Notes: generated from the letters alone by a model not told the origin. 32,000 bases of DNA from a bacterium (GCA_002716355.1 PBAU01000010.1:90001-122000), one strand, 5' to 3'. Shown: positions 5,621 to 32,000, counted from the stretch's first letter. Program-made: numbers and translations.

Positions 5621-8218
5621 TTAAAGATCCAAAGCTCTTCTTATTTCATAAGCGATATTTGTCATGTGGGCAGCAACCATTGGGTCACTATCTTCAGACA
5701 TGTTGGTAGCACTTTCGTACATATCGATTAAAGCATCTGTAGACAATGCAAGCATGTCAGGACCGCTATTTCCCATCTGAATCAAATAACTTGTCCACAA
5801 AGATTGGGAATCTCTATTGAAAGAATTAGCAGCATCAACATTCCATAAAGCTTCATGAACCGCTGCAAACACATCACTGATAGAAAGAGAATCTCCTCCA
5901 TTTGCTTCGTGATACCAGGCTGCATCTCTCATCCTCACTAACCTAGAACTGTCAAAAAGATACATCAAAGTCATCATCTTTCTGGAAGCAACAGTACTGT
6001 GAATGTCAGTATTGAGATCCTGCATAAAACTCCTGCCACCTAAACCATAAGCCCTAAATGAATTAACCATATATGGGTAAAAGTCAACAAGCATAGCAGT
6101 ATCAACTGTCAATGATTCAATAAGAAGATCCAAAGCTCTTTCTTGCTCTGAGTAAGAAATAAAAGATATTGGTGCAGGAGCACCAGGGTCACCCTTGTGC
6201 GCTCTGCTCATATCATGACCACCAAGATATTTTGCAGCAAAAGGGCCACCTCTTGACATGTCATAAAGAATTTGGCTTACACCGCCTCTTAAGTCAGTCC
6301 ATTCTTCACCTTCTGAAACAACCCTATCCTCAATTTCGGAAATCAAACTCTTAGCAAGTTTAATCCTGTCCTCGAAGAATGAAAGTGGATCTGATAAGTC
6401 CCAATAATTTGTATAAGGGTCCCATCCAAATGCTGTTGCTGAATCCTGATCAGTTGCAAAATGATGGTGGGGGTGAGTATTATCAGAAGCTAATTCCTTT
6501 AGCCATTCATGCTGAACACCACTTATCTCGTCTGGCAAATATTTATAACCATACTGAACTGCCCAATCATCATAATCTCCAGTAACTGGTGAAGAATAAT
6601 GTCCTTGGTTGTCTCTATCAGAAGAAACATTTGATTCTGCGTAATCCATAACTGAAGAAATAAGTCCATGTTTGGAAGTGTATTCTTTATTGTTTATTTC
6701 TTCCCAAGGAATGCCATGACTAGATTTGAAATTATGCCTTAGGCCTATAGTGTGCCCTACTTCATGCATCGTAACCTCAATTAATGCTTCAGTAATAAAA
6801 CTATGAGGGATCGGGTCATCAGCACCGATAACTCCATCAGCAATCAAAGCGTTTCTCAAAACAATTGGTGAAAAGTTACCTCCTGAAACCGGACTTAACA
6901 TAGCGCAATACCTTTCCATATCAAAACCTTCAGGAAGATCTCCATAACCATATAAGCTCGCCTCAAATTCTTTAAACTTTCCTTCTTTCCCAATTTCTAA
7001 TATTTCCTCATAATGAGGCAAATTAAATAAAGGGTGAGCTGTAACTTCAGCGTCACCTGTCCAAGCTTTTATCCATGAAGCTGTGAAAACAATATCAGCA
7101 TTGAGTATCTCTCCTGTTCTTGGATCAACATTTGAAGGACCAATCGCAAATGTGCTTGCCAAACTAGGAGCCCACGAAACGCTTGAATACCTCGAATCTC
7201 CAGCAGAATAATCATCTGGCCAATCTTCATCTCCAGGAAGAACTGCTTTAACAGCTCCCTTCCATCCAGCAGCCTCAAAAGACTTATTCCATTTCTCAAT
7301 ACCTATTTTGACATACTCTCTCCAATCTTCAGAAACTGTTGGATCAACATAATATGTAATTGGTTTGATTGGCTCAAGCATTTCAGCATCAGGATCTTTT
7401 GGTTCAAGTCTCCATTTGTTTGCAAGCCTCACCACACCACCATCAGTCTGCTCTGGATTTACATCCATGTCGTAATACTGAGTATCAAAATAACCTATTC
7501 TTTGGTCTGAAGTTCTTGTTGTCATAAGGTCATCAGGAAGCCTCTGCACTGAAAAATGTACACCTTCCTCGCTACTCCCCATATTGAAAATAATATCAAA
7601 TTCCATATTGGTTGGATAAACATCTGATCTGTTGACATAGCTTAAATCCCTATTGAATCCGCGCATGTAACCCAAACCACTATTAATCCAATCACTAACA
7701 TCTAAAAGATAATGGGTTGTTTCTCCATCTTTTTCCCTCGTTGCAACAGGCATCATAGCCATCATCCTTGTACCATCAGAAACACCAAGTGCATTTGCAT
7801 TTGCTAATTTTCCTTCAGGATCCCACCTGTGACTCCAGTTAGGTTCAACAATGTCTATCCTTCTTCCATCAGGATTCATTCTGAATTCAAAAGACATATC
7901 CCCACTCGGCATATGCAAAAGGGAGCGTTGTGCATCAGCATGTGATGTAAGCATTATCGCAACCATAGGATGATTAAGCTCAGAAGCTGGAACTTCAAGC
8001 ATGAATTGACCTCTTCTATCATCGCTTCCAACATAAAGATTCAGCCAACCTTCTCTCTTCTCTAGACCTTTAGCAGCCTGATCAATAGGGTCAACTGGAG
8101 CTTTCTCAACAACTGGTGGCTTTGGTGTAACCCAGCTTCCAGTTTTCCAATCCCAAACAGGTGCCGCCTCTAAAGAAAAGGCTTTAAATAAAATAGTAAT
8201 TAAAAAAATATTTCTCAT
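5621..8218 (-). CDS. Secreted zinc-dependent metalloprotease (zincin, DUF4953/DUF5117-type architecture)
   Basis: 865 aa with an N-terminal signal peptide (MRNIFLITILFKAFSLEA) and the motif TMHEVGHTIGLRHNF. Size and motif match the large zinc-dependent metalloprotease family. Confidence 0.75.
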   Translation of the reverse strand: MRNIFLITILFKAFSLEAAPVWDWKTGSWVTPKPPVVEKAPVDPIDQAAKGLEKREGWLNLYVGSDDRRGQFMLEVPASELNHPMVAIMLTSHADAQRSLLHMPSGDMSFEFRMNPDGRRIDIVEPNWSHRWDPEGKLANANALGVSDGTRMMAMMPVATREKDGETTHYLLDVSDWINSGLGYMRGFNRDLSYVNRSDVYPTNMEFDIIFNMGSSEEGVHFSVQRLPDDLMTTRTSDQRIGYFDTQYYDMDVNPEQTDGGVVRLANKWRLEPKDPDAEMLEPIKPITYYVDPTVSEDWREYVKIGIEKWNKSFEAAGWKGAVKAVLPGDEDWPDDYSAGDSRYSSVSWAPSLASTFAIGPSNVDPRTGEILNADIVFTASWIKAWTGDAEVTAHPLFNLPHYEEILEIGKEGKFKEFEASLYGYGDLPEGFDMERYCAMLSPVSGGNFSPIVLRNALIADGVIGADDPIPHSFITEALIEVTMHEVGHTIGLRHNFKSSHGIPWEEINNKEYTSKHGLISSVMDYAESNVSSDRDNQGHYSSPVTGDYDDWAVQYGYKYLPDEISGVQHEWLKELASDNTHPHHHFATDQDSATAFGWDPYTNYWDLSDPLSFFEDRIKLAKSLISEIEDRVVSEGEEWTDLRGGVSQILYDMSRGGPFAAKYLGGHDMSRAHKGDPGAPAPISFISYSEQERALDLLIESLTVDTAMLVDFYPYMVNSFRAYGLGGRSFMQDLNTDIHSTVASRKMMTLMYLFDSSRLVRMRDAAWYHEANGGDSLSISDVFAAVHEALWNVDAANSFNRDSQSLWTSYLIQMGNSGPDMLALSTDALIDMYESATNMSEDSDPMVAAHMTNIAYEIRRALDL

Positions 8219-8275: not shown

Positions 8276-10579
8276 TTAAGAAAGAAGCAAGTCAATTAAT
8301 TCTTTTTTTGATAAAATTTCAGCATATTCTTTCTTTTCAAAATCACAACTTTCTAAAACCTTATGGAATAAATTCTTCTTTCTTTCTAAAATCGATAATA
8401 TCTTTTCTTCAACAGTATTTTCAGAAACTAGATGTATTGCTAAGACAGAATTTTTACTACCTATACGGTGAGCCCTAGCCACTCTTTGAGCAATTTTTGC
8501 TGGATTATACAAAAGTTCAAAATTTACAACAAGATCGACAAATTGTAAATTCAAGCCCGAAGATGCTGCATCAGTTGCTATAAAAATATTAATTTCAGAA
8601 TCATTTTTAAATTTATCAATGACTTGATCTCTGTTTTTTTGGTTAAGGGCCCCATGGTAAAAAACAGAATTTATATTTTTTTCACGTAAAAATTCGCCAA
8701 TTATTTTACCCATCCTGACCCACTGTGTAAAAATAATCATTTTTTTCCCTGGGCCAATATTTGCACTTTCAATAATTTCAATTAACTCTTTTAGCTTGTT
8801 TCCTACGCCCTGCTCCCCTAGCAGCTCTGGACATGTGCAAGCTTCCCTCATCCTCAAAATACCTTCCAGGGCATTCATTTGACCTTCATCTGACCTGTCT
8901 GACTCCCATGATTTATAAACTTTTTTAAAAATTTTTCGATAAAGTTTTTTTTGGCTAATTGACATTTTGACATAACGAACACTCTCAGTTAATTCAGGCA
9001 GCGAATCCAAAACTTCATCTTTTCTTCTTCTCAGAAAAACACCATTCATTTTCTTTCTCACTTCATCTATGTTCTTGACCTTAACAACAGAACCAAACCT
9101 ATCTAAAACCAAATACCTCTTTCTAAAACCAAATGGCGAGGGCCCAAAGACTGAGGGCTGTATCACCTTCATTATGGTGTAAAGTTCTTCAATTGAATTC
9201 TCTAGAGGGGTTCCTGAAAGCCCAAAGCAATACCTGAAAGCATACGAACTGATAATCTTGCTTGTTTTTGTTTTCCAGTTTTTTACTCTTTGGCATTCAT
9301 CCAAAACAATCAAACCATCTTTTACATATTCTTTAACTTCAATATCCCTTCTAAGCAATTCATAATTGACTATTTTTATATCAGCTGAAGACTTCCATAA
9401 CAACTGTCTTTTTTCAGGTTTTCCTCTTACAATTTCAACATTCCTACCTGTAAATTTGTTAAACTCACTTCTCCATTGAGTCCTTAAGCTTGCCGGCACA
9501 ACGATCAAAACCTTTAAATCAGGGTCTTTTCTTTTCATCTTTTCTATAGCCGCAATTGCCTGAACTGTTTTTCCTAAACCCATTTCATCACCCAGCAATG
9601 CCCTCTTCCTTATCGACAAAAACAATGCTCCTTTTTCCTGATAATCCAAAAGCGGCAAATTGATCATGCTGTTGTCAAATTTCTGATGGATTGCCTCATC
9701 ATCTGAAGCTAGGATCATTGCTGAAGGATGTATGTTAAATTTGACACTCAAAGCTTTAAGCTTTTTAGATAAAATTTTTAAAGACCTAGCTGAAGTTAAT
9801 AACGAAGATCCATTCAAGAAGGAATCACATATCTCTTTTATATCATTTGACATAAACTCCCTTGCCGGAAAAGCTTCAATTTGATTAAAAAACTTAACAG
9901 ATGGAGCAAAAGAAACCTTGTTTAAAGATGCAATTTTATTAATCTTCCAAGCTTTCTCACTGACCTCAACCCATGATCCTGCAAATTTCAAAGCCTCGAC
10001 TAACGGTTTTAAAAATAATGGATCAATTAAAATTTTTGCATTTGCATAGTCCGATATTACCAAAACATATTTTGACAACAGAGAAGAGTGGTAGTCAATT
10101 TGTATCTGATTATTTGATTCAAAAATTTTAACTAAGTTCTTTCTCTTGAACCTATCTAGAGCTTCTTTTCCGGAGGTGCTATACGTGACAACAACCCCTA
10201 AAGACCTCAAATCTAATAAAAATGACCCTAGTTTTAAAGGCTCTAGTATCCAGCCTTTTGGAGATATTTTTCTTATCAATCTTAAAATCCTTTTATCCTT
10301 ACCTCTATATCTAAAAATAATGCTTCCATTCTTAGAAGAATCTAAAATTACTGATTTTTGATTTTTAAAACCTTCAAAAGCCTTTATGCTCTTTTTCTCT
10401 ACAATCAAAACCCAATCAGCTTTCTTTAAAAAATCTCTAAAATCCCAAAAAAGATCTAGAACAACCTCATCACCTTGAAGAAATCTTTGGAACTCAGTCA
10501 GAAAACTTTTTGGAAGGCTTTTAAAATTTGACACCTTTGCTAAATCTTCTGATTGAAAAAAAATTTTAACTTTTTTCAT
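8276..10579 (-). CDS. SNF2-family ATP-dependent helicase/translocase with an uncharacterised ~300-aa N-terminal region
   Basis: 767 aa. Helicase motifs seen are LLGDEMGLGKT (I), VLDECQRVKN (II, DExQ), GLSGTPLENS (III), TDAASSGLNLQ (V) and QRVARAHRIGS (VI). I recognise no motif in residues 1-300. Confidence 0.85.
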   Translation of the reverse strand: MKKVKIFFQSEDLAKVSNFKSLPKSFLTEFQRFLQGDEVVLDLFWDFRDFLKKADWVLIVEKKSIKAFEGFKNQKSVILDSSKNGSIIFRYRGKDKRILRLIRKISPKGWILEPLKLGSFLLDLRSLGVVVTYSTSGKEALDRFKRKNLVKIFESNNQIQIDYHSSLLSKYVLVISDYANAKILIDPLFLKPLVEALKFAGSWVEVSEKAWKINKIASLNKVSFAPSVKFFNQIEAFPAREFMSNDIKEICDSFLNGSSLLTSARSLKILSKKLKALSVKFNIHPSAMILASDDEAIHQKFDNSMINLPLLDYQEKGALFLSIRKRALLGDEMGLGKTVQAIAAIEKMKRKDPDLKVLIVVPASLRTQWRSEFNKFTGRNVEIVRGKPEKRQLLWKSSADIKIVNYELLRRDIEVKEYVKDGLIVLDECQRVKNWKTKTSKIISSYAFRYCFGLSGTPLENSIEELYTIMKVIQPSVFGPSPFGFRKRYLVLDRFGSVVKVKNIDEVRKKMNGVFLRRRKDEVLDSLPELTESVRYVKMSISQKKLYRKIFKKVYKSWESDRSDEGQMNALEGILRMREACTCPELLGEQGVGNKLKELIEIIESANIGPGKKMIIFTQWVRMGKIIGEFLREKNINSVFYHGALNQKNRDQVIDKFKNDSEINIFIATDAASSGLNLQFVDLVVNFELLYNPAKIAQRVARAHRIGSKNSVLAIHLVSENTVEEKILSILERKKNLFHKVLESCDFEKKEYAEILSKKELIDLLLS

Positions 10580-24232: not shown

Positions 24233-24306
24233 TGGGAGATGGTGGACTTGAACCACCGACCTCTTGAATGTCAATCAAGCGCTCTATCCAGCTGAGCTAA
24301 TCCCCC
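24233..24306 (-). tRNA. tRNA-Val (anticodon GAC), no encoded CCA
   Basis: Hand-folded from GGGGGATTAGCTCAGCTGGATAGAGCGCTTGATTGACATTCAAGAGGTCGGTGGTTCAAGTCCACCATCTCCCA. It has a 7-bp acceptor stem, a GCTC/GAGC D stem, a CTTGA/TCAAG anticodon stem with loop TTGACAT, and a TTCAAGT T-loop. Confidence 0.9.
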
Positions 24307-24328
24307 TTTTTTTATTATTCTCAAAATA

Positions 24329-24402
24329 AGGGCGCGGTCGGATTCGAACCGACGAATATAGGCTTTGCAGGCCCACGCCTTAAACCACTTGGCCACGCGC
24401 CC
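24329..24402 (-). tRNA. tRNA-Cys (anticodon GCA, discriminator U), no encoded CCA
   Basis: Hand-folded from GGGCGCGTGGCCAAGTGGTTTAAGGCGTGGGCCTGCAAAGCCTATATTCGTCGGTTCGAATCCGACCGCGCCCT. The anticodon loop is CTGCAAA, the T-arm is GTCGG-TTCGAAT-CCGAC, and the acceptor stem is GGGCGCG/CGCGCCC. Confidence 0.9.
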
Positions 24403-24409
24403 AAGAAAA

Positions 24410-24482
24410 AGCGGAAGACGGGACTTGAACCCGCGACCTCCAGCTTGGGAAGCTGATGCTCTACCAACTGAGCTACTTCCGC
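24410..24482 (-). tRNA. tRNA-Gly (anticodon CCC), no encoded CCA
   Basis: Hand-folded from GCGGAAGTAGCTCAGTTGGTAGAGCATCAGCTTCCCAAGCTGGAGGTCGCGGGTTCAAGTCCCGTCTTCCGCT. The anticodon loop is TTCCCAA and the discriminator is U. Confidence 0.9.
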
Positions 24483-24515: not shown

Positions 24516-25937
24516 TTATTTGATTTTATTCCAAGTTGTACCTGATGAAGAATCTTTGATTTGAATACCTAAACCTAACAATTCGTCTCTTATGCAGTCA
24601 GCTTTTTTCCAATCCTTATCATCTCTCGCTTTGTTTCTTTCTTCTATCATTTCTTTAATCTTTTGATTATCTGAGCTATCCTGTTTGACAAAAATCCCCA
24701 AAACTTCATTAACTTCAGAAAGAAAAGACTTTGCACTCACTGCAATATCATCAAGTCCTTTTTTTCTTGAGTCTTTTACAAGATCCATAACAACAGCAAT
24801 AGCCTGAGGAACATCTAGATCTTTTTGCATAAAATCTACAAAAGAATCTTTATACTTTTGCACAAAATCATGATTATGAGAATTTGCTTCTTTGACATCA
24901 TCTAAATCTTGAACGAAATTATGAAGCCTTTTTAAAGCTGATCGAGAATCCTTCAAGAGTTCAAAGCTAAAATTTAATGGTTGCCTGTAATGACCTCTTA
25001 TAAGTGAATATCTTAACTCGGAGCCGTTAAAACCCCTGTTGTAAATATCACTTGGAGTATAAGCATTGCCCAAACTTTTTCCCATCTTGCCACCATCTAC
25101 CAATAAAAACCTACAATGCATCCAATGCCCTGCAAGCTTTTTACCAGAAAACGCTTCACTTTGAGCTATTTCGCATTCGTGATGAGGAAAAACTAAATCC
25201 TCTCCTCCAGAGTGAATGTCTAACTTATCACCAAAAAGCGAATTCACCATTGCAGAACATTCAATGTGCCACCCTGGAAATCCATCACATCCTAATTCTG
25301 TATCCCATTTCATAAGATGTTTTGGATCAGTTTTCCAAAGAGCAAAATCTCTAGCATCTCTTTTCTCAGAATTGATATCAATCCTGTGGCCTAAGTCAAG
25401 CTTTTCGATTAAGTTCTTTGATAAATTTCCATATTTTTTAAATGATTTAACTGAAAAATAGATATTGCCATTAGATTCATATGCATAACCTTTGTCAACA
25501 AGTTCACGAATCATCGAAACCATATCGTCAATATGCTTTGTTGCTTTAGACATATGTGTAGGCTTTTTCATATTCAAAGAATCCATATCACTAAAAAACT
25601 GTTTTTCATATCGTGCAACGATATCCCATGGAGAAAGGCCTTTTTCTTTTGCTTTTTCTTGTATCGGATCAATCTTAAGTGATGAATCATCACTTTCTCT
25701 CATGTGTCCAACATCAGTAATATTCATAGCTTGAAAAACTTTCCAGCCACCCCACTCCAAAGTCCTCCTTAAAACATCCGAAAAAAGAAAAGATCTCCAA
25801 TTCCCAATGGTAGGACAACTATACAAAGTTGGCCCACAATGATACATTCTCACAACACCTTCTTCATGAGTTTTCAAGGGAAAGAGATCAGCTCTTAAGG
25901 TATCAAAAAAAATTGGCTTTAGCCAGGGTTTATTCAA
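24516..25937 (-). CDS. cysS: Cysteinyl-tRNA synthetase with a divergent HIGH motif
   Basis: 473 aa with a TTG start overlapping the upstream TGA. Motifs seen are RMYHCGPTLYS, NITDVGH, FPGWHIECSAM (Zn site) and GGKMGKSLGN (KMSKS). The HIGH position reads TIGN. Confidence 0.88.
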   Translation of the reverse strand: MNKPWLKPIFFDTLRADLFPLKTHEEGVVRMYHCGPTLYSCPTIGNWRSFLFSDVLRRTLEWGGWKVFQAMNITDVGHMRESDDSSLKIDPIQEKAKEKGLSPWDIVARYEKQFFSDMDSLNMKKPTHMSKATKHIDDMVSMIRELVDKGYAYESNGNIYFSVKSFKKYGNLSKNLIEKLDLGHRIDINSEKRDARDFALWKTDPKHLMKWDTELGCDGFPGWHIECSAMVNSLFGDKLDIHSGGEDLVFPHHECEIAQSEAFSGKKLAGHWMHCRFLLVDGGKMGKSLGNAYTPSDIYNRGFNGSELRYSLIRGHYRQPLNFSFELLKDSRSALKRLHNFVQDLDDVKEANSHNHDFVQKYKDSFVDFMQKDLDVPQAIAVVMDLVKDSRKKGLDDIAVSAKSFLSEVNEVLGIFVKQDSSDNQKIKEMIEERNKARDDKDWKKADCIRDELLGLGIQIKDSSSGTTWNKIK

Positions 25938-26689
25938 TTAGTTATCCATCTCCCACAATTTGAACAAACACAAATACAACCTTTTTCTTCAAGCTCCTCT
26001 AAACATAACGAAGGTAGTGCAGAGTTACACGCAACACATATAAAAACAATATTGTCTTCAAAATCTTTATCTTTTCTTGCCTCGGTTAAAACTAAGCCTT
26101 TTGATCTTTTTGCCAAATCTATAAATCTAGCAACAACTTTTTCATCTAAATCTGAACAAGAGTCTTCAATCTCTTTGCTGATGCTTTTGATATTTTCATC
26201 CTTTTGATTAACTATGTCATTAAACTCTTTTTCTCTATTTGCTACAGCTTCCTCGATATTTGCTAACCTTTCCCTGTTGTCTCTAATGGATTTTTCAAGA
26301 TTTTCGATCTGTATGGACCTTCCAGCAAAATCTTTTTCCTTGTCGTCTTTCTCTTCTCGCTTTTGAATTAAGGACTCAGCAAGTTCCTGAGCGACCCTAT
26401 GCGAGATATCTTCAGAGCTCATACTTTCAAGCCTTTCAATATCCTGAACTATCATTTGCAATTCAGATTCAGCTTCAATTAATTCTTTTTTAACCCTGTT
26501 GTAAACTTCCTCTCTTCTTTTCAATCTTTGCTCTTCATCCCTTGCAGATCTTCTCCTCTGGGCTAATCTAAACTCAACAGCTTTATGCTGTTTCTCTTCC
26601 TCTAATGATTGAATTTCTAAAGTTTTCTCTTGGATGCTTTTCAAAGCCTCCAGCTCTTTTTCCTTTAAAACAAAATCTAAACTAAACAT
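25934..26689 (-). CDS. Coiled-coil protein with a C-terminal C4 zinc ribbon (COG1579 / zf-RING_7-like)
   Basis: About 250 aa, heavily charged and heptad-like, ending in CVACNSALP...CSNCGRWI. The ORF track starts it at TTG 26695. I prefer ATG 26689, which lies 8 nt downstream of the SD AAGGAG (26703-26698). Confidence 0.7.
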   Translation of the reverse strand: MFSLDFVLKEKELEALKSIQEKTLEIQSLEEEKQHKAVEFRLAQRRRSARDEEQRLKRREEVYNRVKKELIEAESELQMIVQDIERLESMSSEDISHRVAQELAESLIQKREEKDDKEKDFAGRSIQIENLEKSIRDNRERLANIEEAVANREKEFNDIVNQKDENIKSISKEIEDSCSDLDEKVVARFIDLAKRSKGLVLTEARKDKDFEDNIVFICVACNSALPSLCLEELEEKGCICVCSNCGRWITN

Positions 26690-26707
26690 AAACAATACTC
26701 CTTATTA

Positions 26708-26784
26708 TGGTGGGGAGAGAGGGACTTGAACCCCCGACCTCCTGTTTGTAAGACAGGCGCTCTATCCAGCTGAGCTATCCCCCC
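26708..26784 (-). tRNA. tRNA-Val (anticodon TAC) with genomically encoded CCA
   Basis: Hand-folded from GGGGGGATAGCTCAGCTGGATAGAGCGCCTGTCTTACAAACAGGAGGTCGGGGGTTCAAGTCCCTCTCTCCCCACCA. The anticodon stem is CCTGT/ACAGG with loop CTTACAA. Confidence 0.9.
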
Positions 26785-26797
26785 CCACTTCTCAGCA

Positions 26798-26870
<73 letters not shown>

Positions 26871-26920
26871 ACGATTTGAGTATCCTATCATAATCGAGAT
26901 TTAATGTGATACACTAAACT

Positions 26921-27095
26921 TATTGGGTGGTTTTAACCCATTGGGTTATACCTTAAAAAGGGAAAATTGTGAGAATCAATTACGGCCCCCGCCACCGTAA
27001 CTGGCACAAAAAAATATTGCCACTGTTTTGAAGAATGGGAAGGCAAGATTGTTTCAAACGCCAGTAGTCGGGAGACCTGCCTAAGCTTAAAAATT
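26921..27095 (+). promoter_or_regulatory. Cobalamin (B12) riboswitch, RF00174-like
   Basis: Three conserved blocks occur in canonical order: AAGGGAAAATTGTGAGAATCAATTACGGCCCCCGCCACCGTAA (26958-27000), GCCACTG...GGGAAGGC (27019-27044), and the B12 box GCCAGTAGTCGGGAGACCTGCC (27060-27081). The SD GGGAGG lies at 27098-27103 and ATG codons at 27108 and 27111. The downstream operon includes a BtuF-like gene. A possible promoter is TTGAGT (26876-26881), 18 nt spacer, TTTAAT (26900-26905). Exact 5' and 3' boundaries are approximate. Confidence 0.85.
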
Positions 27096-27107
27096 ACGGG
27101 AGGTAAT

Positions 27108-28244
27108 ATGATGAAAAAATTTATCAAAGCAAAAATATTATTAATTATTCTTATTTTCTGCTCATGTTCGGGACAAACACCTGAAAATTCCAATAGAGCA
27201 AACCTTGTTCTTTTAACAAACGACTGGAGTCTAAATGAAACTAACTTTTCTATAAACACAGAAAAAGGAGACTGGCTTGAAAGTTCTGAATATCTTGATA
27301 TAAATGATACCTTTAGCGCTGATACCGTAGCTAGATCCTTCAAGGAGAATGAAGCTTGGTTTCTGGACAGGCATAATCATTCAGTTTCAAAAATCAGATT
27401 TTCAAAAAATGGCTCCCCCCAGATGGTTTCAAAATGGACATTAGAAGATAGTCCAAATCCACATGATGTATGGCTTCATAATCAAATTCTTTACATAACA
27501 CAATATGAAAATGAATCTCTAATTATGCTTGACGAAGAAAACGGTCAAAAAATAACTGAAATCAACCTCTCAAATGGAGAATTGAGCAGTTGTGCTCAAA
27601 ATGATGGAAAATCAGAAATGGATCAGATATTCATGAAAAATAATAAAATTTACATTTCTATGCAATGTCTTGACACAACAGGTTCCTGGAATCCAGTTAC
27701 TGAAGGAAAGCTAGCAGTCTTAGACACAAATACAAATTCAATATCAGAAATAATAACGTTAAATGACTGCTTCAATCCAGTTGATGCTTCAGAAGGACCT
27801 TCTGGTAATTATTTATATTTTTCTTGCGTCAACAATTATGAAGGTGGAAATGATGGCTCGATAATAAAAATGAATTACGCTAACCACTCCATTCAAAAAA
27901 TTGCTGATGAATCGTTATTCGGAGGAGACATTGGAGGAATAACAATAAAAAATGATGAAAATATATTTGTAACTGTTACCGCTCCGGATTGGAGTCACAC
28001 ATGGGTTTCGAAAGTAAATATAAATGAAAACCAAGCAGAAACAATACATCAAAAAAATACACCTTGGCATAACAGGATAGCTTTCAAGAACGAGACCTTG
28101 TGGCTTATAGGCAATGAAGGGCTTTACTCTATTTCTGATTGTGGTTTGTTTTGCACAGATGAACAATTGATAAAATCTTCATCAAAATCAGCTCAACTAC
28201 TATTTTGGCTTGGAGATCCGATGTTCGGTGGTGGTGGGCATTAA
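27108..28244 (+). CDS. Riboswitch-controlled lipoprotein of unknown family, putative YncE/BtuG-like beta-propeller
   Basis: 378 aa. MMKKFIKAKILLIILIFCSCSG is a signal peptide with Cys residues for lipidation. The body shows repeated strand-turn units such as PHDVWLHNQILYITQYENESLIMLDEENGQKITEINL, KIYISMQC...GKLAVLDTNTNSI, NYLYFSCVN..GSIIKMN and ETLWLIGNEGLYSI. This is the first gene after the B12 riboswitch. Confidence 0.6.
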   Translation: MMKKFIKAKILLIILIFCSCSGQTPENSNRANLVLLTNDWSLNETNFSINTEKGDWLESSEYLDINDTFSADTVARSFKENEAWFLDRHNHSVSKIRFSKNGSPQMVSKWTLEDSPNPHDVWLHNQILYITQYENESLIMLDEENGQKITEINLSNGELSSCAQNDGKSEMDQIFMKNNKIYISMQCLDTTGSWNPVTEGKLAVLDTNTNSISEIITLNDCFNPVDASEGPSGNYLYFSCVNNYEGGNDGSIIKMNYANHSIQKIADESLFGGDIGGITIKNDENIFVTVTAPDWSHTWVSKVNINENQAETIHQKNTPWHNRIAFKNETLWLIGNEGLYSISDCGLFCTDEQLIKSSSKSAQLLFWLGDPMFGGGGH

Positions 28245-29205
28245 AAAGCTGATACATGCTTTATATGTTTTAATATTACTAATTCCCACCTCCTGCAAAG
28301 AAGCAGGTCAAGAACAAATTCAAAAATCTGAGATAAAGGAATGGAAAATAATATCTTTAGCACCATCAACAACAAGCATGCTTGCAGAGCTTGGCTTGTC
28401 TGAACACATTGTTGCAGTAGATTCATTTTCAAAAAAAGGTTCAAGTTTTTTAGACATTGGTGGACTCATTGATCCGAACTATGAATTAATAACAACAATC
28501 AAACCAACGCATATCATTGGCTTGAATAGCCATTCAAAAATCAAAGAGAAGCTGCATTTCATGAATTCGAAATGGATGTTAAATCCATCAGAAAGCCTTA
28601 ATGATTATTTTCAAACAATCCAAGAAATAGGTAAAGAATTCAATAAAGACCTTGAAGCAGAAAAACATTTGATGGAGATAGAAGAACTTGTAAAATCCTT
28701 AAGGGAGCTGATATCCCTAAATACAAATTGCGAATTGCTAAAATTTGAATATTGCCAAAATGAAAAAAAAATAATGATGATTATTTCAAGAAAACCTGGT
28801 GAAATAACAAACATGTTGGCAGCTGGAAAAGGAACTTTCCTTTCTGAAATTATTGAAAAACTAGGTGTAAAAAACGCAATAAAGAATCAAGAAAGGGCAT
28901 TGAATCCTTATTGGCCAAATATAGGTGCTGAAAGCTTAATTGCAATAAACCCGGATGAAATATGGGAATTTGGAGAAAAGAGCGATGATCAAAATTTATG
29001 TTGCGATATTGATAGTTTTTTTTACCCTTACCTTAAGCTAGAAAACATCACAGCTGTAAAAAATAAAAAAATAAAACTATTCCAGGATACCGACTTAACC
29101 GTTCCGGGAACAAATATAAAAAAAACATTGATTCGATTTGCAATAGAGCTCTATCCTGAAATAAAAGATAATATAAAAATACTAATCAAGCCAGCGAGAA
29201 GCTGA
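28210..29205 (+). CDS. BtuF-like periplasmic (class III, Peripla_BP_2) cobalamin-binding lipoprotein
   Basis: WKIISLAPSTTSMLAELGLSEHIVAVDSFS, ELITTIKPTHIIG, AAGKGTFLSEIIEKLGVKN and ESLIAINPDEIW follow the BtuF/FhuD-type pattern. The lipobox is LLIPTS|C. The true start is probably one of the GTG codons at 28228-28236 (MGIKKLIHALYVLILLIPTSC) rather than TTG 28210. Confidence 0.75.
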   Translation: MEIRCSVVVGIKKLIHALYVLILLIPTSCKEAGQEQIQKSEIKEWKIISLAPSTTSMLAELGLSEHIVAVDSFSKKGSSFLDIGGLIDPNYELITTIKPTHIIGLNSHSKIKEKLHFMNSKWMLNPSESLNDYFQTIQEIGKEFNKDLEAEKHLMEIEELVKSLRELISLNTNCELLKFEYCQNEKKIMMIISRKPGEITNMLAAGKGTFLSEIIEKLGVKNAIKNQERALNPYWPNIGAESLIAINPDEIWEFGEKSDDQNLCCDIDSFFYPYLKLENITAVKNKKIKLFQDTDLTVPGTNIKKTLIRFAIELYPEIKDNIKILIKPARS

Positions 29206-30534
29206 CCATAATTCAAGTGAATTATCACCTTTGTAACAAAGAAAATCGCTACCATTAAAAGCTAACATAAGTGTTGAGCGTGACGCTAAATTTTGATCTT
29301 TTTTACCAATTACCTTCAAGCCAAAATGACCTGCTGCTAAGTAATTTTGGCCTATGTCCAATAAGGAAAGTACGGAACTCTTCAAATTAATCTTTTTAAA
29401 GTTTTTATCTTCAAAATAAACACTTCCATCAACAGTCGAAAATGCTGAACCTGAAAAACTTAAACCTGCACAGCTCAAATCTTTTTTCTTTTTAGGCATG
29501 AAGCTGTTGTTTTTTTCGTAAAGCGTAAATAAGCTTCCATAAAGATCAACAAGGTGAATGTTTTTCTCTCCATAAAAAACAATACTGATACCATTTTTTT
29601 CCTCAAAAACTACAGTGGGTTTATCATTTTCTACAAGGACTAAGGAACCTTCCAGAGAGCCTATTAGAAGCTTGTTGTTTTCAAGATCTGCACAAATAGG
29701 CTTTATGTTCAATTTAAAATCTGAAATAAGATTCAGGCCCTTGTCCCATTTTGAAACGAAGCCGTCTGAAGATACTGCAAATAAAAAATTCTTGTTTGAA
29801 ACAAGTGCGATTATTTTTTTCTTGTGAAAATCTAAAATTCTTGATTCGCTTATCTCTTTTTCATGAATGTTTAAAACAGCAATATCACCATTAACCTTTC
29901 CCGTAATCCAAAATCCTGAAAAATACGCTACTGCAGTCAAGCCAGAAAAATCAGAAAAAGCCCTGGGTGATTCACCAACCTCTACGAGGGCGTCATTTAC
30001 CCATTCTCCATTTAAGTTTTCAGAAACGGCTTGATTGCATAATGCAATGGTTTTTAAATATTTTTTTTCGCTTAATGCATTTTTAATATCTCTTTTATAG
30101 AGTTTCTTTTTTTCTCTTTTTTCGCTTAAAGCCAGGTCTTCTAGATGTTGTTTTGCTGATGCGTTGGAACCATCAACAGACAGAATTTCAAGAGCTATCT
30201 CTTTTGCCTTTGCAGGCTTAGAGCGCTTTAGCTTATTCATGTTTTCCAATAATTTTTCTATTTTTTCTTTTTTTAACTTCGTTAAAATTTCTTGGGCCCA
30301 TTGTATGGATGGAGCCTTTTTAAGAACCTTTAGGACATGGTCATAGCAGTCATCCCAACTACCATTTTCCAAAAGTTCCTCACATTTTTCTTTTTGCTCA
30401 TCTGCCCACATTGCCTTATCTACAGATTCCCTACCACCTTCAATAAGCCAAGAACCACAAAAACGACACTTGTAAGCACCTTGCATAATCATCTCTCCAC
30501 AGTAAGGACAAGGTATTCTTTTTTCGTTACTCAT
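29182..30534 (-). CDS. Hypothetical protein: N-terminal zinc ribbon, helical/coiled region, C-terminal beta-rich (WD/propeller-like) domain
   Basis: 450 aa. CPYCGEMIMQGAYKCRFCGSWL is a C4 zinc ribbon. Residues ~40-190 are Lys/Glu-rich and helical. The C-terminal half has repeated strand patterns such as LFAVSSDGFVSKWD, LLIGSLEGSLVLVEN and YLAAGHFGLKVIG. The start overlaps the upstream gene by 8 nt (ATGAGTAA). Confidence 0.6.
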   Translation of the reverse strand: MSNEKRIPCPYCGEMIMQGAYKCRFCGSWLIEGGRESVDKAMWADEQKEKCEELLENGSWDDCYDHVLKVLKKAPSIQWAQEILTKLKKEKIEKLLENMNKLKRSKPAKAKEIALEILSVDGSNASAKQHLEDLALSEKREKKKLYKRDIKNALSEKKYLKTIALCNQAVSENLNGEWVNDALVEVGESPRAFSDFSGLTAVAYFSGFWITGKVNGDIAVLNIHEKEISESRILDFHKKKIIALVSNKNFLFAVSSDGFVSKWDKGLNLISDFKLNIKPICADLENNKLLIGSLEGSLVLVENDKPTVVFEEKNGISIVFYGEKNIHLVDLYGSLFTLYEKNNSFMPKKKKDLSCAGLSFSGSAFSTVDGSVYFEDKNFKKINLKSSVLSLLDIGQNYLAAGHFGLKVIGKKDQNLASRSTLMLAFNGSDFLCYKGDNSLELWSASRWLD

Positions 30535-32000
30535 TTCTCTCTTCCATGTTTAAAAAAACCAAATTTTCCTCTGAAACAACAACGAGCATTTCAATATCTA
30601 AATAATTCAAAAAGCCTAATGTCCAAATCTTGCCCAAAGAAGGATCCCAATTTATCTCAGATAACTGATTGCCATCTGAATCAAAAACAAACACCTTGTC
30701 AGTAAATTCAGTTGCAAAAGCAAAGCTACCACTATCATTCACCACAACACTTCCAAGCTTGATAGATTTTGGATCTTTTAACATTTTTTTTGCTTTCGGA
30801 AAATCCTGAGATGCGTTCCCTATCCACACCTGACCATTTTGATCAAATGCAAAAATAGTTCCAGAATCATTAAGAAGGACATCTGTAACTGGTTGATTTA
30901 TTGTCAAATTTCCTACAGCAGATAAACCCATAAGCTCTCCTTTCATTACACTGTAAAGGGAAACAATGGAGTTGTTGGGTCCAAAATTATAACCAATAGC
31001 AATATGTTCATTATTGTTAACGCTTAACTTGATCTGTCTTGACTCAAGCCCATCCCAAACAAACTTACTAGAGCCATAGCCCATAACAACCTGGAGGGAT
31101 CTTGTTTCACTCTCGTGAAAAACACCGAAACCATTATCTGCAAGATCAAAAGCATCAAAATACCTTTTGCTTGAAATGATCTTTCTCTTTTCCGATCCGG
31201 CCTGAGAGTCCACCCACGCCCCTTTTGAAGAAGCCCAAAAAACTTCACTTTCAAAATGAACTTTTTGCACTAGTGAGTCGTCAACATCACCATCACCATT
31301 CTCTAAATTTGAAAATCTGAATGGTGAAGAAGATAATATACGATATCCACCCCTTACACCTAGCAACAATTCAATATTTTTAAAATCTTCAGATTGTGAA
31401 AGCGAATAAACCTGTTCCGGCAAGTTGAAAACATACACGGGAAGATTGTCAATTTTAGAAAGTTCATAAAGTTGTGCAAAAATCAAAGCTTCATCTTCTT
31501 TCTCTAATAGCAACAAAGGGAAGGCTTTTTCTGAAAAATACCGTACCTCTTCAGCAGTTGAGTTTTTTAAAAAATAATCTAAATTATCCTTAAACAAGCT
31601 TCCAAATGGTATTTTTTGAGATAGCTCAAACATAACTTCTGCTTCAAGAAGCCAATCCGGCTTCTCTATCCTAAGCCCACTTAAAAGCAAGGATAACTCT
31701 TTTAAAAAATCATCATCATAATCAAGATAAGGGTTGATGTGCATGTCTATTTTTGTTGACTCTTTTATTTCGGACAATCTCATTTCGTAAGATTTTTTCA
31801 GAAGTAAAGATACCCACGCCAAATCTGGTTTCAAAGGTATTTTTTTCAACTCTGATATCGATTCTTTGAAATTTCCTGAATCAAATAAAGATTGAATTTT
31901 TATCTTTAAAGAAACAAAAGCGTCTTGCTCATAGCTTGCAAGCAGGTTTGAAACATCTGCACTTTCTGGCCATTCTTGACTTAAATCATTCAACAAGGAT
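30527..32000 (-). CDS. Hypothetical protein with a helical N-terminal part and beta-rich propeller-like C-terminal part; 5' end probably outside the window
   Basis: The frame is open to the window edge. The track start at 31996 is only a TTG, and the preceding codon is also sense. The C-terminal half has repeats such as GTIFAFDQNGQVWIGN, GSFAFATEFTDKVFVFDSDGNQL and KIWTLGFLN. No family motif was recognised. Confidence 0.55.
   Translation of the reverse strand, partial: SLLNDLSQEWPESADVSNLLASYEQDAFVSLKIKIQSLFDSGNFKESISELKKIPLKPDLAWVSLLLKKSYEMRLSEIKESTKIDMHINPYLDYDDDFLKELSLLLSGLRIEKPDWLLEAEVMFELSQKIPFGSLFKDNLDYFLKNSTAEEVRYFSEKAFPLLLLEKEDEALIFAQLYELSKIDNLPVYVFNLPEQVYSLSQSEDFKNIELLLGVRGGYRILSSSPFRFSNLENGDGDVDDSLVQKVHFESEVFWASSKGAWVDSQAGSEKRKIISSKRYFDAFDLADNGFGVFHESETRSLQVVMGYGSSKFVWDGLESRQIKLSVNNNEHIAIGYNFGPNNSIVSLYSVMKGELMGLSAVGNLTINQPVTDVLLNDSGTIFAFDQNGQVWIGNASQDFPKAKKMLKDPKSIKLGSVVVNDSGSFAFATEFTDKVFVFDSDGNQLSEINWDPSLGKIWTLGFLNYLDIEMLVVVSEENLVFLNMEERNE

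Follow-up and report, generated by a model that had tools for sequence, protein, structure and literature searches.

A putative corrinoid-binding propeller lipoprotein, distantly related to BtuG, behind a cobalamin riboswitch of an unclassified marine bacterium

What does a lipoprotein that belongs to no curated family do when its gene is the first one behind a cobalamin riboswitch? This question is raised by a 378-amino-acid (aa) protein, here called X, whose gene (27108-28244, + strand) lies in a stretch of 32,000 nucleotides (nt) from an unclassified marine bacterium (GCA_002716355.1, PBAU01000010.1:90001-122000; G+C content of 35%). The whole stretch is hereafter the window, and positions are counted from its first letter. 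The initial annotation, made from the sequence alone, proposed a B12-riboswitch-controlled propeller lipoprotein that captures corrinoids like BtuG of Bacteroides and is paired with BtuF instead of BtuB. Our analysis partly supports this proposal. The idea of a BtuG-like capture is indirectly supported because the predicted fold matches BtuG, because a chain of profile comparisons leads from X to BtuG and because all homologues, as well as the distant relatives sampled, have a cobalamin riboswitch. Judging from sequence comparisons and structural modelling, X is probably a corrinoid-binding component of B12 uptake that is homologous to BtuG, a reading to which we give a probability of about 0.65.

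The X lipoprotein, its family and its predicted fold

A cobalamin riboswitch aptamer of the class I/adenosylcobalamin type (RF00174) is located at positions 26908-27098 (+ strand), and the cmscan match (86.2 bits, E-value 3.8e-20) covers the full model (positions 1-189). Its 3' end lies 9 nt ahead of the ATG of X at 27108, a second in-frame ATG being present at 27111. Since the open reading frame (ORF) 27108-28244 directly follows the match, X is the first gene behind the riboswitch, as had been annotated. The coding sequence is supported by the ORF, the homologues and their alignment, the structural model, Foldseek and hhalign. The lipoprotein signal previously noticed was also recovered: the predicted signal peptide and lipobox extend from 27108 to 27167 (+ strand), and the codon 27165-27167 is that of Cys20, the predicted lipidation site. 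The N-terminus (MMKKFIKAKILLIILIFCSCSG) comprises a basic n-region, a hydrophobic core and a lipobox-like F-x-S-C motif; the call was made by eye from the sequence pattern (...LIILIFCSC(20)SG) and not by a predictor. Cys20 is invariant across all homologues, which form nine protein clusters, and in those of high GC content the lipobox is canonical (LAAC or LLAAC). The lipoprotein export signal of Bacteroidota, an acidic run of the K-(D/E)2 type, was not found after Cys20, where X carries SGQTPEN and its homologues CSEN.. or CSPGP..; the export signal of BtuG2 itself likewise scores poorly (10.1101/2023.03.17.533168). Furthermore, Shine-Dalgarno sequences are used by 11 of the 26 genes of the window, against a background of 14%, which counts weakly against a Bacteroidota host.

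X had been described as lacking any motif of a known family, and this holds for the curated libraries. The best match of the single protein in Pfam is DUF4221, with a non-significant E-value of 0.069, and the same search gave no meaningful match in NCBIfam and no significant match among PDB sequences. A profile restricted to X matched no PDB sequence by hmmsearch either, BtuG and YncE included.

The family of X consists of about nine protein clusters worldwide. Among 5.8 billion proteins, relatives at 67-99% identity form five clusters only, all from marine metagenomes or from uncultured metagenome-assembled genomes (MAGs); the MAGs that carry X loci belong to the Tara, TOBG and Bin Chicken sets. 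When 1.84 billion cluster representatives were searched exhaustively with a profile, a single deeper branch (P0006, E-value 3e-60) was gained, as well as about 380 weak relatives (381 at E-values of 1e-3 or below, including 45 at 1e-10 or below). P0006 and three relatives of it (P0155-P0157), which share 32-37% identity with X, are from organisms of high GC content. When metagenomes were scanned with the X-family alignment, four loci were recovered, none of them new. Purifying selection acts on the gene, whose homologues have identities of 99, 84, 67 and 33%. RF00174 lies directly upstream of the X gene in all 11 related loci scanned, which represent all nine clusters and include the 33%-identical high-GC branch; homologues of X are therefore consistently associated with B12 elements, an association whose absence would have spoken against the initial annotation. 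The public 441-aa call of one homologue (P0004, L011:9784-11109) begins inside the riboswitch; its first 62 or so residues are an annotation artefact, and the real start is near the lipoprotein signal.

The structure of X was modelled with AlphaFold2 (AF2) from an alignment of nine sequences to which the high-GC branch had been added. This final model has a predicted local distance difference test (pLDDT) of 77.9 and a predicted template modelling score (pTM) of 0.81; it replaces an earlier one, based on six close sequences, that had a pLDDT of 64 and was poor at both termini. It consists of 28 strands in seven four-stranded blades, in agreement with the propeller build read from the sequence in the initial annotation. 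The propeller body spans aa 31-367 (27198-28208, + strand), as delimited by AF2, Foldseek, the alignment and hhalign, and blade 7 is closed by the last strand (aa 361-367) together with the N-terminal strands 31-65. In a Foldseek search of the PDB, the top 16 matches are BtuG2/BT1954, BtuG3/BT2095 and BACUNI_02894, interleaved with XusB, with template modelling (TM) scores of 0.58-0.71, and AztD, NirF, Sec12 and YncE come below them. BtuG chains are the best matches, YncE ranking below all BtuG and XusB chains, and BtuG2 (8ptf) was already first with the poorer early model.

Remote homology to BtuG and the putative ligand site

The relationship between X and BtuG was established through an intermediate family, whose profile was built from 35 distant relatives and contains no X sequence. 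The X-family profile aligns with it over 356 columns with an hhalign probability of 100% and an E-value of 2e-55, and both groups have the motifs TxDY, DxVxR, NPxD, DGxPEM, LQxLD, NP, DGGI and GGDI in common. When the 35-relative profile was searched against all PDB sequences, the 12 best matches were all BtuG chains (E-values of 1e-10 to 5e-8), followed by designed 'Pizza' repeat propellers, and neither XusB nor YncE was retrieved. By hhalign, the same profile matches BtuG with a probability of 97% and an E-value of 6e-11. Since this chain from X to the intermediate family and on to BtuG holds, X would be a remote homologue of BtuG and not a product of convergence; according to these profiles, it is a very distant homologue. 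X had initially been called 'analogous or convergent' to BtuG: the likeness stands, and the convergence is contradicted by the profile chain (E-value 2e-55, then 1e-10).

The genomic context of the distant relatives was sampled with four members located on long contigs (L018, L019, L020 and L022). All four loci display the order TonB-dependent receptor, propeller and Peripla_BP_2 protein (L018:129-3349, L019:5669-11861, L020:5799-10111 and L022:524-10646), two of them also with FecCD and ABC_tran genes, and RF00174 heads the operon in each case. For the receptors of these loci, the TonB-B12 model is the second-best match, below its cut-off. One receptor-linked relative, P0227, is 70% identical to P0009, the second-best distant match to X. 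The source names of the distant relatives point to Myxococcota and Leptospiraceae, besides unclassified MAGs. From their gene content, these operons look like BtuB-BtuG-like pairs outside Bacteroidota. The arrangement of the X locus had been put forward as new biology; since TonB-paired propellers of the same superfamily are already found under B12 riboswitches in public genomes of other phyla, it is a variant and not a new kind of system. In L022, the FecCD gene of the riboswitch-controlled btu operon is separated from the ABC_tran gene by an insertion of MazE-like and MNT/HepT-like toxin-antitoxin genes (8620-9809).

In BtuG2, the corrinoid occupies a cavity in the middle of one propeller face (PMC10404256), where it is contacted by E55, Q93, N107, S131, W149, W194, S195, Y196, Q219, Y239 and W272 (10.1101/2024.02.16.580637; PMC13616437). 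These positions were mapped by a hidden Markov model (HMM) alignment with an index offset of +31 and carried to X through the hhalign alignment between X and the distant relatives; the offset is verified since W149, W194, S195, Y196, Q219 and S131 are reproduced. S131 of BtuG2 aligns with N117 of X, the family-wide Asn of NPxD, and W194-S195-Y196 with Q186-C187-L188. Q219-P220 falls at the N223-P224 motif, N223 being the sole invariant column of a 41-sequence alignment. The contact positions map to the most conserved columns of the X family, with their polar character kept and their identities not; blades 1 and 5-7 are not aligned reliably. Invariant motifs of X mark the beginning of each blade's innermost strand (D72, N117-P-H-D, E170-x-D172, N223-P-x-D, G273-x-D and W320-H-N-R). 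These correspondences support, without proving it, a ligand site common to X and BtuG.

Two other features characterise the X family. Four cysteines (Cys162, Cys187, Cys221 and Cys240) are invariant, which suggests two disulfides. Moreover, the protein ends with the tail GDPMFGGGGH-COOH (aa 369-378; 28212-28241, + strand). In the form GDP[MYT]FGGGGH, this tail is invariant in all nine X clusters, down to 33% identity, and is found in none of 187 distant relatives. As it follows the innermost strand of the closing blade in the AF2 model, it would emerge beside the central channel. On this model, one may speculate that the terminal His, tethered by four glycines, could reach the cobalt or the pocket of the upper ligand, which makes an appealing hypothesis.

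Uptake partners, regulation and rival explanations

X is followed by a gene that encodes a putative Peripla_BP_2 substrate-binding lipoprotein (BtuF/IsdE-like cluster A; 28228-29205, + strand; PF01497, E-value 2e-12; lipobox LIPTSC) and that overlaps the stop codon of X by 17 nt. Its start is uncertain (GTG at 28228, 28231 or 28234, or TTG at 28210), and the gene callers use 28228 (L001-L004). The genes that come next run convergently on the minus strand, so that the unit comprises the riboswitch, X and the BtuF-like gene, and no permease, ATPase or TonB-dependent receptor. No Plug/TonB_dep_Rec gene was found in the 32-kb window, where the ORFs long enough for one encode an 865-aa Met-zincin and a 767-aa SNF2 helicase, and about 13 loci, which represent two deeply diverged branches, all lack a TonB receptor within 10 kb of X. 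At the level of the locus, X is paired with a BtuF-like gene and not with a BtuB receptor gene.

The partner of X varies under the same riboswitch. The BtuF-like gene stands alone in the window and in L005-L013, which are low-GC loci, and is accompanied by ABC_tran and FecCD genes in L016. In L014 (11192-11749) and L015 (1548-2117), its exact syntenic slot is filled by a gene for a polytopic membrane protein of 185-189 aa that belongs to DUF6580 (PF20221, E-value 1e-53). The riboswitch-X pair is kept while the transporter component is swapped, and no other argument from context speaks as strongly for a probable role of X itself in corrinoid uptake. The DUF6580 protein is a candidate corrinoid permease from its position in these loci; a relationship with BtuM or with the S-components of energy-coupling factor (ECF) transporters was sought by phmmer against the PDB and in NCBIfam, with no match, and a literature search for DUF6580/PF20221 found no paper. 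A comparison of N-termini indicated that the BtuF-like partner is a lipoprotein in all X loci. Of three receptor-linked loci compared with them, at least two encode a partner with a plain signal peptide, and the remaining one (L022) is ambiguous.

The leader of X suggests how this unit is regulated. A 5-bp hairpin (AUUAC-GGGAG-GUAAU; 27093-27107, + strand), recognised from sequence and fold, abuts the ATG at 27108, and its loop contains the Shine-Dalgarno sequence GGGAGG (27098-27103). This loop is unchanged when eight related leaders are aligned with that of X, and two stem pairs are altered on both sides in the high-GC relatives (GUUUC-GGGAG-GAAAC). According to the fold calculation, the hairpin is no more stable than shuffled sequences (z = -0.8). 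An expression platform acting by transcription termination was ruled out, as no intrinsic terminator was found between the aptamer and the ATG. The hairpin is likely the expression platform, with control exerted on translation initiation, because it holds the Shine-Dalgarno sequence in its loop and because no terminator precedes the start codon. On the other side of the riboswitch, two tRNA clusters, of three (24233-24482, - strand) and two genes (26711-26870, - strand), flank cysS. The second one ends 38 nt ahead of the riboswitch on the opposite strand, so that the promoter of the riboswitch must sit in a very short divergent spacer.

From these elements, the following mechanism can be proposed for a B12 scavenging module in which X would be the first component and would be repressed by the riboswitch. 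When intracellular adenosylcobalamin is low, the Shine-Dalgarno hairpin would become accessible, and X would be made together with the BtuF-like lipoprotein by translational coupling; the gene order and the overlap are observed, and the regulatory mode is deduced from the leader. X would then be exported, lipidated on Cys20 and stabilised by disulfides among its invariant cysteines. It would bind a corrinoid in the central cavity of one propeller face through polar and aromatic inner-strand residues (N117, Q186, N223 and their neighbours) and may pass it to the neighbouring uptake component, i.e. the lipid-anchored BtuF-type protein here, and BtuF-BtuD-BtuC or the DUF6580 protein in relatives. 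The weakest step is that X may act without a dedicated BtuB. It is suggested by the fact that no TonB receptor is ever adjacent and that the BtuF partner is itself a lipoprotein; we consider this BtuB independence possible, at odds somewhat below even. A more specific version, in which X belongs to a BtuB-independent branch of the BtuG superfamily and acts as a membrane-tethered corrinoid 'antenna' that directly loads the lipid-anchored BtuF or DUF6580 protein, its Gly4-His end threading the channel to ligate cobalt as upper axial ligand or to gate release, is rather unlikely. If it were true, the chemistry of binding and hand-off would be one not seen in BtuG.

Several observations weigh against a BtuG-like role for X. 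The direct signal between the X family and BtuG is marginal (hhalign probability of 48% and E-value of 2e-4 with BtuG1, 17% with BtuG2). In the fold search, XusB, a siderophore binder, scores equal to BtuG and the E-values grade smoothly into generic seven-bladed propellers (YncE, Sec12, AztD), so that this search taken alone is no more than suggestive. The conserved inner-strand motifs are no proof of a ligand site since they are also structural repeat motifs of YVTN/YncE-type propellers. The BtuF-like partner matches models of haem and iron binding proteins better than BtuF (in NCBIfam, IsdE at 2e-16 and BtuF at 5e-6, both below cut-off, with a weak FhuD match). Nearly all X loci have one and the same synteny, and because of this common ancestry the linkage to the riboswitch mostly reflects a single inherited event instead of many separate associations. 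Finally, BtuB could be encoded in another part of the genome. In that case, X could be an ordinary BtuG-type lid on a TonB-dependent BtuB, with a changed gene order and the mechanism of the Bacteroides BtuBG system. The closest distant relatives, such as P0227, sit directly after a TonB receptor, and the fold of X matches BtuG chains taken from BtuB-BtuG complexes (8bmx_D, 8p97_B and 8blw_B). However, the TonB receptor is missing from the surroundings of X in both deeply diverged branches, the BtuF partner is lipid-anchored and not a protein with a plain signal peptide, the four cysteines and the GGGGH tail are absent from the receptor-linked relatives, and X has no Bacteroidota-type export signal after Cys20. 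Hence, we judge this explanation unlikely, without neglecting it.

Another explanation keeps the B12 control and changes the ligand: X would bind or process a corrinoid precursor, a lower ligand or a haem- or siderophore-like molecule, or would carry out a metal-dependent hydrolysis or remodelling in its channel. The rank of XusB and the resemblance of the neighbouring binding protein to iron and haem binding proteins more than to BtuF are in line with it, as are Drp35 and AztD among the weaker matches and the invariant H119, D120, E170, D172, N223, D226, D249 and H321, which ring the channel entrance and recall the Ca/Zn sites of propeller hydrolases. Yet the profile search selects BtuG and neither XusB (DUF4374) nor hydrolases, every relative examined has a cobalamin riboswitch, and we know of no corrinoid-remodelling enzyme with this fold. 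The pocket of BtuG itself is, moreover, strongly acidic (PMC6143338), and we regard a different ligand as improbable. It is less probable still that X has no role in B12 uptake and is a structural or adhesion propeller lipoprotein placed by chance between a riboswitch and a transporter gene. X indeed lacks a curated family and its lineage is rich in propeller and WD40 proteins, but X remains the first gene after the riboswitch even at 33% identity, in loci where the gene that follows it has been replaced, and it is homologous over its full length to receptor-linked, riboswitch-controlled relatives. A corrinoid-binding BtuG homologue thus remains the preferred reading of X.

The synteny common to the close X loci consists of cysS, a protein of 251 aa, tRNAs, the riboswitch, X, the BtuF-like gene, a 450-aa protein and a WD40 protein. 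The first of these unassigned proteins is in the window a coiled-coil protein of 253 aa with a C4 zinc ribbon at its C-terminus (25934-26695, - strand); it has no Pfam family, and all related loci have it conserved between cysS and the pair of tRNAs. The btu unit is faced, in convergent orientation, by the genes of a 450-aa protein that combines a zinc ribbon with a beta-propeller (29182-30534, - strand) and of a multi-WD40 protein of about 876 aa (30527-31996+, - strand). Both keep their synteny with X in all lineages, the high-GC L014 and L015 included. At a distance from X, the 865-aa Met-zincin (DUF5117 and DUF4953; 5621-8218, - strand) is likely a secreted metalloprotease and adjoins a Fe/Mn superoxide dismutase gene.

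Comparison with known systems

BtuG was described as exclusive to Bacteroidetes from a BlastP search against 313 gut genomes (PMC6143338), and a later survey placed 'virtually all' lids in Bacteroidota (10.1101/2023.03.17.533168). Outside this phylum, a review from 2026 considers BtuH and BtuJ, and not BtuG (PMC13616437). Our search of the literature for a riboswitch-linked marine propeller lipoprotein found no paper. The X locus and the distant relatives suggest that BtuG-type propellers are a wider and older solution for B12 scavenging, which reaches bacteria of the open ocean, where B12 is scarce and shapes communities. If the proposed reading is correct, the X subfamily would be the first case found of a BtuG-type propeller uncoupled from BtuB and coupled to inner-membrane uptake components. 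Moreover, DUF6580, an uncharacterised membrane family, would gain a candidate function, and the invariant Gly4-His terminus would offer a simple handle on the mechanism.

Among characterised proteins, E. coli YncE is, like X, a YVTN-type seven-bladed propeller of the envelope, and its name is the one that NCBI gives to relatives of X. Its scores are nevertheless lower (TM of 0.52-0.56 by query; E-value of 1e-4 with a mixed profile only). YncE is a soluble protein and not a lipoprotein, is regulated by Fur and has, to our knowledge, no link with B12. XusB, the xenosiderophore-binding lipoprotein of Bacteroides (DUF4374), is closer in structure, being a seven-bladed propeller lipoprotein that works as a lid (TM of 0.63-0.66), but it has no sequence-profile match with X, binds siderophores and belongs to an iron context instead of a B12 one. 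BtuK1 of B. thetaiotaomicron is also a riboswitch-controlled propeller lipoprotein, which binds cyanocobalamin and may hand it on (PMC13616437). Unlike X, it carries a PKD domain at its N-terminus and binds its ligand in a solvent-exposed mode, and the top 50 fold matches of X do not include it, the presence of its structure 9S6C in the searched library being unchecked.

The unnamed receptor-linked propeller lipoproteins annotated as 'YncE family' (P0219, P0227, P0235, P0240 and others) resemble X by their riboswitch control, by the downstream Peripla_BP_2 gene and by full-length profile homology. They are 18-24% identical to X and differ from it by their position after a TonB receptor, by BtuF partners that are mostly not lipoproteins and by the lack of both the set of cysteines and the Gly4-His tail.

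Lastly, BtuG2/BT1954, BtuG3/BT2095 and BtuG1/BT1490 of Bacteroides thetaiotaomicron, for which a Pfam scan of a BtuG2 fragment found no covering model, provide the closest known parallel. X differs from them in sequence (about 11-14% identity, with no direct HMM match), in not being located beside a BtuB TonB receptor, in lacking the Bacteroidota export signal and in having a lipid-anchored BtuF-like or DUF6580 protein as partner. The four invariant cysteines and the C-terminal GDPxFGGGGH of X are absent from BtuG, and the host of X, an unclassified marine bacterium with moderate use of Shine-Dalgarno sequences, is unlike that of BtuG. Despite these differences, both are seven-bladed propeller lipoproteins of about 340-380 aa encoded in uptake operons under the control of a B12 riboswitch, and BtuG is the best structural match of X (TM of 0.6-0.7).

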